Shown here: one piece after another, positions 1 to 4,795 of the stretch | How positions within the stretch are numbered: the first letter of the stretch is position 1 | Layout of the letters: each line of letters begins with the position of its first letter | From: a virus | Lineage: Duplodnaviria; Heunggongvirae; Uroviricota; Caudoviricetes | Direction: 5' to 3' (one strand) | IMG/VR virus record: IMGVR_UViG_2645727555_000023 | Length of the DNA: 4,795 bases | Made by a program: the position numbers and the translations under genes | Notes under the pieces: generated by a model | The model's input: only the letters and a program-made list of their open reading frames with translations | Told to the model about the DNA's origin: nothing | Database searches by the model: none

Positions 1-85
1 CCATATAACCACCTGAAAGACAATGACATTGCCTGTTTTTATAACGGTAATTGCAGACCATGACAAGCCGCAGCCGTCAGGCTGC

Positions 86-178
86 CTACTCGGTAGAAAT
101 CAGCGACGGAACCAGTAAACCGTAGATGAGAGCCACTGAAAGGCCTGTGGCTACTGCCAATAGATAGATTTTGATCAT
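86..178 (-). CDS. Putative small hydrophobic peptide, 30 aa (MIKIYLLAVATGLSVALIYGLLVPSLISTE), probable single transmembrane helix
   Basis: Hand translation of the minus strand: ATG at 178-176, TAG stop at 88-86. AGGA Shine-Dalgarno at about 184-187, 5 nt upstream of the ATG. Not in the supplied ORF track (too short). Composition is almost entirely hydrophobic. No homolog recognised. Confidence 0.3.
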   Translation of the reverse strand: MIKIYLLAVATGLSVALIYGLLVPSLISTE

Positions 179-207: not shown

Positions 208-236
208 ATAATAAGTAAGTACTTATATATTTTCAA
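208..236 (-). promoter_or_regulatory. Candidate sigma70-type promoter (TTGAAA - 17 bp - TATTAT) reading toward the small peptide ORF
   Basis: On the minus strand: TTGAAA (236-231), 17-nt spacer, TATTAT (213-208); each hexamer is 5/6 to consensus. Lies directly after the recA terminator T-run and about 30 nt upstream of the peptide ATG. AT-rich context makes chance matches possible. Confidence 0.3.
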
Positions 237-270: not shown

Positions 271-2610
271 TTACTCTTCTACTGACTCGGTGGGGTTGTC
301 TTTTGCTCTTCGGTCGTCGATTGCCTGCAAAGCCGCAATGATTTCAGCCAGTGGCTTCTCCCGATACATCTCGACGATCTGTGATTTGGTGTATTTCTTG
401 TCACCAATTTCAACTCGCCCGCTGGCGTTCTTTGGCAGGTATCCTTCATCCAGCATGTACTCGACGAGCGATTCGATAACGTCGAGGCCACGAGTAGGAT
501 CGAAGTAGAATTTCCAGGTGCATTTGCCATACGGTGGTGCAACTTTGTTTTTGATGCATTCTGCGCCTACGTCTTGGCCGATCTTCTCTTTACCATCCTT
601 CATCACCGATGCACCAAGACGGATACGTACAGAAGCGTAGAACTTCGGTGAATCTCCACCTGGCGACGTAGTAGGGTCGCCAAACATTACACCGATTTTT
701 GTGCGAACCTGATTCAAGAAGATGATGCAGGCGTTGTATTTGCGTGCCCACAAAGCCAGAGTAGGGAAGTTCGCACTCGTCGCACGAGCCAGTGCCGTAT
801 TGTCGTTCATGTTTAGCTGATCTTTGTCTTTGGCTGTGCCTTCAGCCATCTTTTCGAACTTCTCGGCTTTGGAGTTCGGAACCATAGACGCAAGAGAGTC
901 AGCCACGATACAGATTGGTGCTGATTCGGGGATAAGCTCTTCATCACGAACCAATTTAAGTATTGTGCCGATCAACTCTACAGAGTCTTCGAAGGTATCT
1001 GGCTGCTTGTATACCCACTGACCGTCATCCTCATCTGCGTTCAGGCCATTGGCTACAGCCAGGCCAACGTCAAAACTGTTTTCATGATCGAGGAATACCG
1101 CCAGACCATCTTGTTTTTGAGCGGAGATCATCGCTGCTGTTGCAAGGAATGTGTTGTGGCTGATAATCCCGTTAGACCAGAAAGAGTGTGTTTCCGGCAT
1201 CGCTACGTCGAACGTTGGTGCTTCACCTTCCTCAATAGCCACGACTTCGTCGTAGAACAAGTTAGAGCCAATTACCGCTGCCAGTTGTGCAAACAGATGC
1301 TCGTTAAAACGATTCTTTCTGCCAATGAAGGAGACATAGATTTCTCGCAGTTTGTCTATTCCGACACGATCGCCGCGGCCAATAACGTGGTCTACCAGAG
1401 CGTAGTCTTCACGGGTGGTCTTGGTGAGCGACTCGTAGAGTGATTTCACTAAGCCGCTGATGTGCGGAACATAGCCTGAGTAAGTGCGGTCAAAACCAAT
1501 GTCCCGTTTGGTTGCCACTGATAAACGTGCCGGAGATTCGAAACCAATCGTTGACAGAAAAAGGTCGTAATTAGAGCCACTGAATGACAGCCGGTAATAT
1601 GTATTTTCATAACCCGCGACGTGTTTTTCAGAGATAGTTGACGTAATCCCCAGATTCAGGAGCATGAGGCGAATTTGCTGTAGCAGCAGCCCACTCGCGC
1701 TTACAACCTCAATGCAGCGACCATCATTGACGTGGCATTCCAGCTCAAAGTAGCCGCGAAGGAATGCAATTTGAGCCTCGCTATTGGCGCGACGCACACT
1801 CAACGGAACCTGCTTGCCAGCAGCTTTCTCATACTCCAGACCATATTCTTTAAAAAGCAGCGAACGCACCTCTTTGCTAAACAGCACATGGTCTTCCGAG
1901 CCGTTATGTTTTCTCGTAACTGGCATCTTGTCTGATACCAGCGAAATGAGGCGGTAGTACTCATCCTTGATGAAAGGATCTGTGTTAGAAAAATTCACTG
2001 AATTTTCAGAGGCCACGTATCCGTCAGCAATTAAATAGCCCATCAGTTTTGCGATATTGGCATCCAGGTGCTGATCGCCGAATTGATGTGTGCCAACCAT
2101 TGAAGGAATCGTGTCGCCTACACTGATTTTTTCAGCATGTCGCCAGACGACATTACCTAAGTCGTCAACCACACGGATTGGGTGACGGAACGTAGCCTCG
2201 ATATAACCGCCTGATGCCAGCTTAATACGCTTGAATTTGCGACGGTTGTTCCATGTCAGGTGTGAGGTCTTCTCTATCACGCCATTTTCATTGATGAGTC
2301 CAACGTTATGCTCTACATCGCGAGTAGTGCATGTCGCTTTGTACCCTTCAATCTCAAACAACTCTTTCACTGTTACCATTCCACGCTCCGTCAGCAGCAT
2401 GGTGTCTGCGGTAACACATTTCCCCGCGCTTGGAGGACCGAATACTTCGACGATACGACCACATGGGAAGCCGCCATCGTAACGACCAGAAATAGCTTTG
2501 TTTAACGGTGGAAAGCCTGTATCAATCCAATGAGTTACTTTCTGAATTTCGTCGTTGCTACCGATTTTCTTTTTCAGAGCAAGTGCCAGTGCGGATTTTC
2601 CTTTTGCCAT
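271..2610 (-). CDS. recA: RecA-family recombinase precursor (779 aa) containing a 422-aa intein; predicted spliced product 357 aa
   Basis: Exteins align to bacterial RecA hallmarks: N-extein GRIVEVFGPPSAGK + C-extein TFLATAAMI rebuilds Walker A GPPSAGKT (RecA GPESSGKT); Walker B-like ICIVADSLASMVP; L2-loop region FLNQVRTKIGVMFGDPTTSPGGDSPKFYASVR closely matches RecA [32 protein letters not shown]. ATG at 2610 is preceded by AAAAGGAG 7 nt upstream. Symbol denotes RecA family; a phage-encoded homolog is likely. Confidence 0.9.
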   Translation of the reverse strand: MAKGKSALALALKKKIGSNDEIQKVTHWIDTGFPPLNKAISGRYDGGFPCGRIVEVFGPPSAGKCVTADTMLLTERGMVTVKELFEIEGYKATCTTRDVEHNVGLINENGVIEKTSHLTWNNRRKFKRIKLASGGYIEATFRHPIRVVDDLGNVVWRHAEKISVGDTIPSMVGTHQFGDQHLDANIAKLMGYLIADGYVASENSVNFSNTDPFIKDEYYRLISLVSDKMPVTRKHNGSEDHVLFSKEVRSLLFKEYGLEYEKAAGKQVPLSVRRANSEAQIAFLRGYFELECHVNDGRCIEVVSASGLLLQQIRLMLLNLGITSTISEKHVAGYENTYYRLSFSGSNYDLFLSTIGFESPARLSVATKRDIGFDRTYSGYVPHISGLVKSLYESLTKTTREDYALVDHVIGRGDRVGIDKLREIYVSFIGRKNRFNEHLFAQLAAVIGSNLFYDEVVAIEEGEAPTFDVAMPETHSFWSNGIISHNTFLATAAMISAQKQDGLAVFLDHENSFDVGLAVANGLNADEDDGQWVYKQPDTFEDSVELIGTILKLVRDEELIPESAPICIVADSLASMVPNSKAEKFEKMAEGTAKDKDQLNMNDNTALARATSANFPTLALWARKYNACIIFLNQVRTKIGVMFGDPTTSPGGDSPKFYASVRIRLGASVMKDGKEKIGQDVGAECIKNKVAPPYGKCTWKFYFDPTRGLDVIESLVEYMLDEGYLPKNASGRVEIGDKKYTKSQIVEMYREKPLAEIIAALQAIDDRRAKDNPTESVEE
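1153..2418 (-). mobile_element. Intein (422 aa) with LAGLIDADG homing-endonuclease domain, inserted in the recombinase P-loop between Lys64 and Thr(+1)
   Basis: Starts with Cys (TGT at 2418-2416) in a block-A-like CVTADTMLLTERG. Block B TFRHPIRVV (TxxH). Two LAGLIDADG motifs: LMGYLIADG (2046-2020) and LRGYFELEC (1761-1735). Blocks F/G TFDVAMPETHSFWSNGIISHN end in His-Asn (AAC at 1155-1153) followed by Thr +1. Removing it restores a contiguous 357-aa RecA. Confidence 0.85.
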
Positions 2611-2612
2611 GA

Positions 2613-2879
2613 TCAGGCTCCTTTTGTTTCGTTGATTCGTTTTACAGCGGCGGATTCATCGAATACAATCGCATCGTGGTTAAGGAGTCTGGATACACGA
2701 GCGAGGATTTTTACGACCTGCTCGCTGACTAATCCAAACTCGCGATCTGTCGCTTTCATTCCGGCAGCGCCTAGAATTGACGGCAGTGCGATGACAGCGT
2801 ACTCACCGTGATAAAAGACAATCTCTTTTGCCAGTTGGGCAGGGGTGGTTGTAGCGCCATTGATAATCGATTTAAGCAT
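2613..2879 (-). CDS. Hypothetical small protein (~88 aa), translationally coupled between the exonuclease and recombinase genes
   Basis: ORF track gives 2613..2885 from a TTG. The in-frame ATG at 2879-2877 overlaps the exonuclease TAA stop (2881-2879) as TAATG and is the more likely start. No recognisable motif; function unknown. Confidence 0.55.
   Translation of the reverse strand: MLKSIINGATTTPAQLAKEIVFYHGEYAVIALPSILGAAGMKATDREFGLVSEQVVKILARVSRLLNHDAIVFDESAAVKRINETKGA
2618..2624 (-). promoter_or_regulatory. Shine-Dalgarno (AAAAGGAG) for the recombinase gene, embedded in the 3' end of the upstream small ORF
   Basis: Minus-strand AAAAGGAG lies 7 nt upstream of ATG 2610 and overlaps the last codons (K-G-A) of the upstream ORF, whose TGA stop (2615-2613) sits 2 nt before the ATG: translational coupling. 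Confidence 0.6.
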
Positions 2880-3823
2880 TAGCAATACCTTTCGAATGGA
2901 AGAACAAACACTTCAAGGTCTTCAAGGAACGAACGGAAATTCAGCTCGTAGCACAGTTGCTCGAATGCTTTCACGTCACGATTGCCTTTGATTGTTTCGA
3001 TTTCGGTAGGCGGAAACTTCGTCTCAATCAGGTTCATTAGCGTGATGTTTCTCTTGAACGCTTCGAGCATTCGACAGCCTGTTTTCTCGTTGAAGGCATT
3101 CTTCGCTAGTTTGTTGAAGGCGGTCTTATGGCGTCCTTTGTCAACCACGATTGAGCCGTCGTTGATGCCGCGTACCATCGTTGCGACACTTCCCCATTCA
3201 TGCAGCAGCTCTTTCGCACCGCCAGCACCAATGCCACCAACACCGCTAATGTTGTCCGATTTATCGCCTTGTAATGCTTTTGCTTCCAAAAATGCGCGAG
3301 GAGTAGCGAATCCTGTCAGCTCCGCAAATTGCTCAAAATTAACCTGCTTGTTTTTGGCGTCTTCGCGCAGGCTTACCCAGCTTACGTTTTCGCGAACTAA
3401 CTGAAGCCAGTCGCTATCGCCTGTTAACAGATAGATGTGTTCAACGGTTGGCTGCGGTGCCATGCGGGATACCAGCAGCCCGGCCAGATCATCCGCTTCT
3501 GCATCTTTTGCAATGAGTTGGGTAACTCCAAGCGCGGTCATCATTTTGAGGATGTATGGCTTCTGGATAGCAAAGCCTTCCTTCATCTTTTTCATATCAG
3601 GATCGTCGTCGCGATTTGCTTTGTAGTCCGGGTAAAAGTCGCGACGCTTGTCACTAAATCCATCCCAAAGAATCATAGGTCGGGCATGGAGGATGGAGGC
3701 ATAACGACGGACGTTCTTAACAAAGCCGAAAGCAGCCTGTACTTCCATTTCGCCGTTGTGCAATTTGTCAGATTGTTGGTGGTAATAACCCAGGCTATTG
3801 CCATCTACGAAGAGATAATTCAC
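2879..3823 (-). CDS. 5'-3' exonuclease / flap endonuclease (FEN family, Pol I 5'-nuclease-like)
   Basis: N-terminal motif NYLFVDGNSLGYY (compare Pol I 5'-nuclease LILVDGSSYLYRAYHA), acidic cluster LLTGDSDWLQLV, and H3TH motif ALQGDKSDNISGVGGIGAGGAKELLHEWGS (compare Taq ALTGDESDNLPGVKGIGEKTARKLLEEWGS). ORF track starts at GTG 3874; the in-frame GTG at 3823-3821 with GGAAGGAA SD 8 nt upstream is preferred because codons 2-12 of the longer ORF are the terminator hairpin and T-run. Stop TAA at 2881-2879. Confidence 0.85.
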   Translation of the reverse strand: MNYLFVDGNSLGYYHQQSDKLHNGEMEVQAAFGFVKNVRRYASILHARPMILWDGFSDKRRDFYPDYKANRDDDPDMKKMKEGFAIQKPYILKMMTALGVTQLIAKDAEADDLAGLLVSRMAPQPTVEHIYLLTGDSDWLQLVRENVSWVSLREDAKNKQVNFEQFAELTGFATPRAFLEAKALQGDKSDNISGVGGIGAGGAKELLHEWGSVATMVRGINDGSIVVDKGRHKTAFNKLAKNAFNEKTGCRMLEAFKRNITLMNLIETKFPPTEIETIKGNRDVKAFEQLCYELNFRSFLEDLEVFVLPFERYC

Positions 3824-3838
3824 CGGTACATTCCTTCC

Positions 3839-3867
3839 AAAAAGTAAGGCGTCCGTAGACGCCTTAC
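3839..3867 (-). terminator. Rho-independent terminator or attenuator between the SSB-like gene and the exonuclease gene
   Basis: Minus strand, 17 nt after the SSB-like TAA stop: GTAAGGCGTC-TACG-GACGCCTTAC (10-bp stem, 3867-3844) followed by TTTTT (3843-3839), then the SD and GTG of the exonuclease. Stem arms AAGGCGTC/GACGCCTT are identical to those of the terminator at 246-266. Confidence 0.55.
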
Positions 3868-3883
3868 TGGTCACGTAATGGGA

Positions 3884-4651
3884 TTACAGAGAGTCCAGTT
3901 CTCTCAGTAGGTCATCCAGACCTTCATCTTCCGTCGCAGATGCGGTTGCTACAGATGTCGCTGCTACTGCTTCAGACTCTTTGACTGATACGGCAACGGC
4001 AGCGGAACTTGCTTCTGGTTTAAATTCAGTTTCAACGGCACGGAGGATTTCTTCATCAACCAGACTGGTTGGTTCAGAAGCTGGGGTGTGAGCGGTTGCT
4101 ACAGCAGTCGCACCCTCCGTATGACCAGTGACAGAGCCAAATCCAGGCAGTGCCGCGGCCGATGTTTTCGCGGTAGAGGAAATTGCTGGTGCAGATGCTG
4201 CGGCAGTTGGTGCAGCGATGCCAATCAGACGACCCATAGTGCGAACTGTCGACAGAAGACGAGTTTCATCAGCCTGATTTGCGTATGCGATCAGATCATG
4301 CTGGGTGTTCCAGAATTTATCTTCGATATCGCCTTTGTAGACTTTACGCTTAGGCGAGACGTCATATTTGGTATCGCGACCAGAACCAGTACGTTTAATC
4401 AGGAATGCGTAGCCTTCCTCTTTGCTCAGTGGATTGCCGATATCATCAGCGATGTCTTCGGTGATTGCTTTGCAGATATCATCGAATACAGTAGACGGCA
4501 GCTCGATTAACTGGCATTTCTCAGCATCTGCGAAATCCTCACGAGCAGAAAGAATGCCGTTGACCAGGTAGCGAGGAGTGGCACGCATTTGACCGATGCG
4601 TTCTTCCATTGCTTTGTTACCCTTGTGACGAGCGCGACCTTCCATAACCAT
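3884..4651 (-). CDS. Putative ssDNA-binding protein (gp32-like features), probably a 3' fragment of a gene disrupted by the adjacent IS element
   Basis: Long Ala/Ser/Thr-rich low-complexity linker ending in acidic tail EDEGLDDLLRELDSL, typical of SSB C-termini. The frame stays open upstream of the first ATG up to the IS boundary (4701) and encodes C-x8-C-x2-C (YICEQHTHGRACQLCEM), reminiscent of the T4 gp32 zinc site. No Shine-Dalgarno precedes ATG 4651 or 4645. Functional call is motif-level only. Confidence 0.5.
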   Translation of the reverse strand: MVMEGRARHKGNKAMEERIGQMRATPRYLVNGILSAREDFADAEKCQLIELPSTVFDDICKAITEDIADDIGNPLSKEEGYAFLIKRTGSGRDTKYDVSPKRKVYKGDIEDKFWNTQHDLIAYANQADETRLLSTVRTMGRLIGIAAPTAAASAPAISSTAKTSAAALPGFGSVTGHTEGATAVATAHTPASEPTSLVDEEILRAVETEFKPEASSAAVAVSVKESEAVAATSVATASATEDEGLDDLLRELDSL

Positions 4652-4701
4652 TTCGCATAGCTGACAAGCGCGACCGTGAGTATGTTGCTCACAAATATAA
4701 G

Positions 4702-4795
4702 TGAACCGCCCCGGGAATCCTGGAGACTAAACTTCCTGAGAAAGAGGTAAACAGGATGACTAAAAATACTCGTTTTTCCCCTGAAGTCCGTCAAC
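4702..4795 (+). mobile_element. Left end of an IS3-family insertion sequence (IS629/IS1203-like), continuing beyond the window
   Basis: Sequence begins TGAACCGCCCCGGG at 4702 (IS3-family termini start 5'-TG). It is followed by GAGG SD and an ATG at 4756 opening an ORF MTKNTRFSPEVRQ..., which matches from memory the N-terminus of IS629-group OrfA transposases. Exact IS identity is unverified. Confidence 0.7.
4756..4795 (+). CDS. IS3-family transposase OrfA, N-terminal 13 codons (partial, runs off window)
   Basis: ATG at 4756-4758 with GAGGT 7 nt upstream; translation MTKNTRFSPEVRQ. Recognition is from recalled IS629/IS1203 OrfA sequence. Confidence 0.7.
   Translation, partial: MTKNTRFSPEVRQ

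Follow-up and report, generated by a model that had tools for sequence, protein, structure and literature searches.

Gene content and genomic context of the locus

We analysed a 4,795-nucleotide stretch of viral DNA (IMG/VR record IMGVR_UViG_2645727555_000023), which at its full length is called the window here, and which carries a recombination module of four genes. All long open reading frames (ORFs) of the module lie on the minus strand, and in the order of transcription they are the remnant of a gene for a T4-gp32-family single-stranded DNA-binding protein (SSB), a 5'-3' exonuclease gene (exo), a small gene designated orf88, and the gene for an intein-containing RecA precursor. A sequence-only reading of the same DNA had proposed four co-directional genes with these positions and identities, and both the strand assignment and the Pfam and PHROG matches bore it out. 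As an exact-protein look-up revealed, the window is the complete 4795-bp draft contig DF970385.1 (assembly GCA_001297725.1) in reverse complement, and its two ends are therefore assembly breaks in repeats. The visible portions of the flanking insertion sequences (IS) are 93 nt of an IS91-family element on the left and 94 nt of IS629 on the right.

Sequence comparison revealed that the segment from 89/95 to 4701, which makes up 96% of the window, was 98–99.4% identical to the Escherichia phages PhiR41_1 and Cyrano. The same segment matched more than 100 E. coli plasmids, each of ~110 kb, equally well (98–99.4%), and Salmonella phage SSU5 showed ~80% nucleotide identity to it. At 99.4% identity to the intact elements, the segment contained zero frameshifts. 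Among 5426 complete E. coli genomes, exo together with orf88 was found in 217, and all of the places of occurrence (221/221) were on plasmids, with none on a chromosome. Cyrano is equivalent to pLF82, a plasmid present at ~5.5 copies per cell that forms siphovirus particles and shows 39-fold induction by ciprofloxacin (PMC9928086), and RecA-like genes are persistent within the SSU5 supergroup (PMC7969092). Very probably the window comes from an SSU5-type siphoviral phage-plasmid of E. coli, of whose replication/recombination region it holds 4.6 kb, with a proposed T4-like mechanism, intein homing and IS damage. The element is an extrachromosomal phage-plasmid and not an integrated prophage; of the prophage context suggested by the sequence-only reading, the phage-related and mobile-element-rich surroundings held up and the integrated state did not.

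In the Cyrano record, the depositors' annotation runs in the order UvsY recombination mediator, T4 gp32-like SSB, exonuclease, RecA, small membrane protein, and stomatin-like protein. The wider Cyrano-type element also encodes Pol III alpha and epsilon, a helicase, a primase, a ligase, SbcCD-like proteins and RuvC, and likewise ribonucleotide reductase and ThyX. The four genes had been described as a self-contained cassette, which they are not, because they form a slice of this larger T4-like replication/recombination region, with a UvsY-like gene directly upstream in the intact elements. The window as a whole was covered by no phage record and no complete E. coli genome.

Recombinase and intein

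The recombinase precursor (271–2610, minus strand) comprises 779 aa with matches to Pfam RecA, Intein_splicing, and LAGLIDADG_3. The N-extein (2419–2610, minus strand) provides residues 1–64 and ends in GPPSAGK, and the C-extein (271–1152, minus strand) provides residues 65–357 of the spliced protein and the stop codon, giving a deduced spliced product of 357 aa. In this product GPPSAGKT is restored at residue 58 and ICIVADS stands at residue 144, so that the RecA core motifs are present, and the intein-less recombinase of SSU5 (358 aa) could be aligned with it free of gaps.

Pfam RecA matched the recombinase with E=3e-36, and among the PHROGs it fell into phrog_97 'UvsX-like recombinase' (E=2e-91). 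Searches against the PDB gave E values of ~1e-31 to 1e-35 for bacterial RecA and 2.7e-5 for T4 UvsX (3io5). The NCBIfam RecA equivalog TIGR02012 scored 132 bits, well under its cut-off of 325. On these profile scores the recombinase is a divergent phage-type RecA and not the housekeeping orthologue. The outcome that the sequence-only reading had set against its own, namely that the locus is the host's ordinary and sole chromosomal recA, is scarcely conceivable and was refuted: the Pfam RecA match fits it and nothing beyond does, whereas none of the 221 matches in complete E. coli genomes was chromosomal, the equivalog score falls short, and the neighbours are phage-plasmid genes.

The intein (1153–2418, minus strand) is a class-1 intein of 422 aa with a LAGLIDADG homing-endonuclease domain; it occupies residues 65–486 of the RecA precursor and is inserted in frame, exactly between K64 and T65 in the Walker A motif (GPPSAGK|T). 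The residues for splicing are all present (Cys1, block B TFRH at 76–79, SHN at 420–422, and Thr+1), and block F reads FYDEVVAIEE. The LAGLIDADG motifs are LMGYLIADGY (125–134) and FLRGYFELEC (219–228), with the acidic D and E present. Pfam Intein_splicing reached 44.3 bits (cut-off 35.8), both TIGR01445 and TIGR01443 were above their cut-offs, and LAGLIDADG_3 matched with E=2.4e-17; this domain resembles the endonuclease domains of PI-PkoII and of the V-ATPase intein.

In other RecA proteins, the GK|T site is likewise the position of related inteins (28–45% identity), and RecA and P-loop inteins are a known class in which P-loop insertion is recurrent (PMC4760082). With the P-loop inteins of RecA/RadA ATPases, such as those of Pyrococcus horikoshii RadA and bacterial RecA, the intein described here shares the class-1 type, the GK|T site, Cys1, TxxH, HN, and Thr+1; it differs in that its host gene is on a phage-plasmid and that it combines a full LAGLIDADG domain with recent horizontal spread. 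The RecA inteins of M. tuberculosis and M. leprae lie at other sites. The intein-containing precursor is already in public annotation, as PHROG 9666 and in RefSeq as 'LAGLIDADG family homing endonuclease', and no paper describing the intein in SSU5-type elements was found in the searchable literature.

Distribution and spread of the intein

We scanned IMG/VR with the spliced recombinase, which yielded 80 loci with protein identities of 92% or more, and mapped their gene order by tblastn. The intein was carried by 18 of these 80 viral loci and by 120 of the 217 E. coli elements (~55%), and it was found nowhere else in those genomes; SSU5 itself and ~45% of the E. coli elements have no intein. 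When the window was compared with a diverged backbone lineage, nucleotide identity reached 96.7–96.9% in the intein; the other values were 82–84% (exteins), 82% (exo), and 74% (orf88). The synonymous divergence (dS) was 0.094 for the intein and 1.3–2.2 for the flanking genes. With a ratio of nonsynonymous to synonymous divergence (dN/dS) of 0.14–0.18, the intein, including its endonuclease domain, appears to be under purifying selection.

The flanking synonymous markers GCGGGGAAA|ACATTCCT were common to all intein-plus alleles of both lineages, whereas the intein-minus alleles of the same lineages differed at the markers, one allele type excepted on the N-side; an intein-minus site reads ...AGTGCAGGGAAA|ACGTTCCTTGCA.... 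Locus L077 was a mosaic with its breakpoint at the intein. Taken together at the level of sequence, the low dS of the intein, the shared markers and the mosaic locus are what recent homing with short co-conversion tracts classically leaves behind, and the LAGLIDADG nuclease would have spread the intein by homing between diverged phage-plasmid lineages.

Exonuclease and orf88

The exonuclease gene (2879–3823, minus strand) encodes a 5'-3' exonuclease or flap endonuclease (FEN) of 314 aa starting at GTG 3823, with Pfam 5_3_exonuc_N and 5_3_exonuc both above their cut-offs. In all homologues, whether annotated or called, the start corresponds to GTG 3823. A 331-aa product from the in-frame GTG 3874 was also considered and rejected; the conserved hairpin described below would then fall within the coding sequence, and the homologues are all 314 aa long. 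The closest solved relative is the T5 FEN D15 (1EXN/5HMM; E=3e-15). In the alignment with this enzyme, VDG, D.G, EADD, DSDW, and GDKSDN stand at the eight metal-binding carboxylate positions.

Between exo and recA lies orf88 (2613–2879, minus strand), which encodes a conserved protein of 88 aa belonging to phrog_2207 'unknown function' (E=6e-54). The start of orf88 and the stop of exo share 1 nt (TAATG), orf88 and recA are separated by 2 nt, and orf88 is apparently translationally coupled between the two. No Pfam match was obtained for orf88 even at E<=10, nor any NCBIfam match, and an exhaustive HMMER search of 1.8 billion representatives returned ~20 small relatives only. A confident AF2 model consisted of three helices (pLDDT 89.7), for which Foldseek against the PDB gave nothing better than E=0.8. 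Because its dN/dS is ~0.1, orf88 is a real gene, and it is under purifying selection. It is unannotated in the Cyrano record, where a gap stands between Exonuclease and RecA.

SSB gene and IS629 insertion

The SSB remnant (3884–4701, minus strand) retains the 3' 271 of 342 codons, the first 71 having been replaced by IS629. Pfam gp32 matched it with E=4e-44 at profile positions 60–208 only, compared with positions 1–208 and E=2e-66 for the intact Cyrano SSB (342 aa); the full-length gp32 domain, with its N-terminal region and zinc motif, is absent from the window SSB. Side-by-side translation with Cyrano placed the longest ATG ORF that is left (255 aa, start at 4651) downstream of the Cys/His zinc motif CEQHTHGRACQLC. 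The acidic C-terminal tail is still present. The SSB in this copy is inactivated.

The left end of IS629 (IS3 family) occupies 4702–4795 on the plus strand and comprises the terminal repeat TGAACCGCC..., the orfA ATG at 4756, and the first 40 nt of orfA, which reads away from the module. Over its 94 nt, in which one end of the element is visible, this segment matched IS629 copies annotated in Stx phages and in E. coli genomes at 99–100% identity. Homology to the intact relatives ends exactly at 4701. This insertion inactivates the SSB and parts exo, orf88 and recA from the UvsY-like gene as well as from the control region that natively lies upstream.

When the IS629/SSB junction was searched for exactly, with one genome per species, nothing was returned, and neither IS junction was present among PLSDB plasmids. 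An identical 255-aa truncated SSB was observed in two further E. coli drafts, L089 (GCA_017292775.1) and L090 (GCA_031058115.1), whose contigs start 14–25 nt inside the IS629 junction; L089 continues into intact downstream membrane-protein and Band_7 genes. Since the truncated SSB recurs in other drafts and the downstream genes of L089 are intact, the IS629 event looks common to a small lineage and the IS91-family event private to this strain.

IS91-family element at the left end

Positions 1–93 (minus strand) are the terminal 93 nt of an IS91-family element at its 5', orf121-side end, and the contig ends within the element. This sequence gave 100% matches in 225 E. coli genomes, with 387 of the 412 places on large plasmids. 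We assign it to the 5' end of an IS91-family element because in two annotated plasmids it directly adjoins an ORF of 121 aa and a transposase that has the Pfam domains Y2_Tnp and Zn_Tnp_IS91. The terminus ...CTACTCGG was the same in three different contexts, and intact phage-plasmids read CTCTTG|GTAGAAATC at the insertion point, which corresponds to the CTTG target typical of IS91. An IS21/IS100-type identity of 1–93, suggested by top matches annotated as istB, was rejected; in one plasmid the IS91-family element had itself inserted into IS21.

The element inserted 92 nt past the stop codon of recA, within a gene for a 66-aa membrane protein, the remnant of which (94–178, minus strand) retains the first 28 codons (translation MIKIYLLAVATGLSVALIYGLLVPSLIS). 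Its homologue is CYRAN_56/SSU5_061 (phrog_1130), and the gene is intact in L089. Upstream of this gene lies a sigma-70 promoter-like site, TTGAAA-17-TATTAT (208–236, minus strand), with 10 of 12 consensus positions matching; it is a consensus match only. The sequence-only reading had correctly seen both the intein in recA and an IS in the SSB gene; its count of two hits by selfish elements stands for the intein and IS629 and missed the IS91-family element as a third.

The two IS ends also bear on whether the window is still part of a phage-plasmid. It could instead be an isolated, IS-bounded fragment on another replicon, for example a virulence plasmid, produced by one-ended rolling-circle transposition of IS91 or by IS-mediated deletion. 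The 4.6 kb are indeed flanked by two different IS elements, the IS91-family element occurs mostly on large E. coli plasmids, and neither IS junction was in any database record searched. The segment moreover abuts the IS91-family end upstream of the transposase gene, and DNA beside that end is what read-through of one-ended transposition can mobilise. We nevertheless consider such a fragment unlikely. The IS91 junction falls exactly at the CTTG of the intact backbone, as a simple insertion predicts, and another E. coli contig with the same truncated 255-aa SSB runs on into intact backbone genes. The high identity to intact elements without frameshifts suggests very recent events, and contig breaks at IS copies are a normal outcome of short-read assembly. 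An IS-damaged copy of the phage-plasmid remains the preferred explanation.

Intergenic spacers and hairpins

The sequence-only reading had described tight junctions throughout and a module bracketed by terminators. The overlap of exo with orf88 and the 2-nt gap before recA agree with the first of these descriptions, but the SSB stop is separated from the exo GTG at 3823 by a 60-nt spacer, not by 9 nt. As for the terminators, a strong hairpin followed by a T-run lies past recA (246–266); on the minus strand it reads AAGGCGTCC-aca-GGACGCCTT and then TTTTTT, and it is kept in SSU5 with a different loop. There is none upstream, where the boundary is an IS, and a second hairpin lies inside the module.

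This second, terminator- or attenuator-like hairpin (3839–3868, minus strand) reads AGTAAGGCGTC-tacg-GACGCCTTACT followed by TTTT, and its stem is the same as that of the recA terminator. The hairpin itself, whose stem has 11 bp, lies at 3843–3868, and the 53-nt stretch 3828–3880 folded with -21.5 kcal/mol. The hairpin is kept in SSU5, and the copy in relative L003, with one extra T, was picked up by the terminator scan. Because it sits in the SSB–exo spacer, the module is not simply bracketed and holds an internal terminator/attenuator-like element.

A palindromic stem, AGGCGTC(C)-N3-4-(G)GACGCCT followed by a T-run, was common to three hairpins, located after the SSB gene, recA, and the stomatin-like gene. 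The copies lie at 3848–3863 and 248–264 of the window (minus strand) and, for the third, at 58550–58567 of Cyrano (OV696614.1). In the 100 kb of Cyrano the stem occurs at these three places only, compared with zero in shuffled sequences, and in SSU5 the stems are conserved and the loops differ. The identical stem of three neighbouring terminators might reflect a shared factor, an operator-like palindrome, or duplication.

A scan of the window revealed no consensus promoter on the minus (coding) strand of the module. Compared with Rfam, the window produced a single match at chance level, rejected because its 22.6 bits fall far below the gathering score of 229, and the repeat scan of the window gave short chance matches only.

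Synteny among relatives

The order UvsY-like gene, SSB, exo, orf88, RecA was kept in every locus of the IMG/VR scan that retains the region, with the exceptions of L037, L049, and L085 (deletions) and L086 (truncation). The same order was found in the remote relative L092, in which orf88 is only 41% identical. The more distant L091 carries the same genes without orf88, and its recA is interrupted, at the position found in the window, by an intein of 44% identity. The genes are thus syntenic elsewhere, contrary to the second outcome that the sequence-only reading had named as opposed to its proposal.

The exceptions consist of different rearrangements. In L085, codon 44 of the SSB gene is fused to codon 46 of orf88 and exo is gone, and in L037 and L049 the SSB gene and/or the N-terminus of exo is lost. 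In L086 (5751–6900), recA is cut exactly at the P-loop/intein site, with the N-extein and upstream genes replaced by unrelated DNA that carries a 511-aa ORF on the opposite strand; this rearrangement may have been triggered at the homing site. Because relatives carry such internal deletions, the module is evidently dispensable for plasmid maintenance.

Further observations concern single loci. In L091, recA (8001–10388) was called as two ORFs, the first ending just before the C-terminal splicing block, which reflects either a degenerate intein or a sequencing error, and a DNA ligase gene follows recA. Protein P0031 is a chimeric ORF composed of the N-terminal half of orf88 and intein block F. 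In L003, which is otherwise intact, Pol III alpha is split into two ORFs by an HNH_3/NUMOD3 homing-endonuclease-like ORF (3976–4710; ENA ERZ27281615 k141_8727), so that a further selfish element lies in this replication region.

Comparison with known recombination systems

The SSU5-supergroup phage-plasmids (SSU5, Cyrano/pLF82, and the S. Typhi pHCM2 type) possess the same genes in the same order at 80–99% nucleotide identity. What sets the window copy apart from them is a pair of insertions, IS629 within the SSB gene and an IS91-family element within the gene that follows recA. Public annotation already contains the gene arrangement, the proteins, and the intein precursor.

The gene set also resembles the presynaptic system of T4 (UvsX, UvsY, gp32; RNase H and gp46/47), with a gp32-family SSB, a RecA-family recombinase, a candidate mediator, a FEN, and SbcCD/Mre11-Rad50-like genes nearby. 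The expected role, recombination-dependent replication, would be alike by analogy. The recombinase is, however, nearer to bacterial RecA than to UvsX, the similarity of the mediator to UvsY is marginal, and the FEN is nearest to T5 D15 and the 5' nuclease of Pol I; the element here is a temperate plasmid-prophage. The T4 counterparts of these genes are scattered in the T4 genome, whereas those of the phage-plasmid are clustered.

As the sequence-only reading had pointed out, the arrangement differs from lambda Red and RecET. These systems are similar in that phage recombination functions are clustered in one transcription direction. The phage-plasmid region has no single-strand-annealing protein, lambda-exo-type nuclease, or Gam, and instead encodes a strand-exchange protein of the RecA type, which is ATP-dependent and comes with an SSB of its own.

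Proposed function and fate of this copy

In the intact elements, the genes and hairpins follow the order UvsY-like mediator, gp32-type SSB, hairpin, FEN, orf88, RecA, hairpin. By analogy with T4, the gp32-type SSB would coat single strands arising from resection, for which SbcCD-like genes lie nearby, and the small mediator would load the RecA-type recombinase, so that strand invasion could prime recombination-dependent replication or repair during lytic growth. The FEN would take off RNA primers and flaps. Owing to the hairpin past the SSB gene, the enzymes encoded further downstream are probably transcribed less than the stoichiometric SSB, and the recombinase would be active only once splicing rebuilds GPPSAGKT.

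In this strain, IS629 inserted into the SSB gene after codon 71 and the IS91-family element into the gene after recA. The other ORFs probably owe their intactness solely to how recently both elements inserted, and what is left of the module is probably no longer expressed and heading for decay. The sequence-only reading had envisaged a module for host-independent recombinational replication or repair; with the SSB truncated and the genes cut from their upstream region, this copy is more likely decaying.

A related possibility, that in this strain the genes function in recombination and repair for the benefit of the host, as a second RecA system that has been domesticated, is very improbable. 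The exo, orf88, and recA-intein ORFs are intact and purifying selection acts across lineages, but that selection was measured between intact phage-plasmids and not in this lineage. The SSB has furthermore lost its 71 N-terminal codons and its longest ATG ORF begins past the zinc motif, IS629 with orfA pointing away separates the module from the mediator gene and upstream region, and the coding strand shows no consensus promoter. A decaying copy of a phage-plasmid region agrees better with these features.

Several points weigh against the view of the window as a damaged piece of a T4-like phage-plasmid region. The contig stops inside both IS copies, so that the remainder of the phage-plasmid is outside view. 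The upstream 134-aa protein of the intact elements gave a weak match to phrog_231 (UvsY-like; E=5.5e-4) and no Pfam match. Since it is bacterial RecA and not T4 UvsX that the recombinase resembles more closely, the T4 analogy, by which the mechanism is proposed, is functional rather than orthologous; splicing, nuclease activity, strand exchange, and recombination-dependent replication are predicted activities. The only sign that expression would have been lost is the missing consensus promoter on the minus strand.

A bolder proposal combines three suggestions: orf88 could be a lineage-specific recombinase-accessory protein (mediator or inhibitor), the P-loop intein could gate RecA and recombination-dependent replication by redox or stress, as proposed for other RecA/RadA inteins, and the three terminators of identical stem could be a shared regulatory device. 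That all three hold together is something of a long shot.

The mildly new elements of this analysis are intein homing in SSU5-like elements, orf88, and the terminators with a shared stem. The module is found as standard in a very common family of enterobacterial phage-plasmids, the window holds a damaged copy of it, and Cyrano-type phage-plasmids could be a convenient E. coli system for the study of intein homing and recombinase accessory factors.

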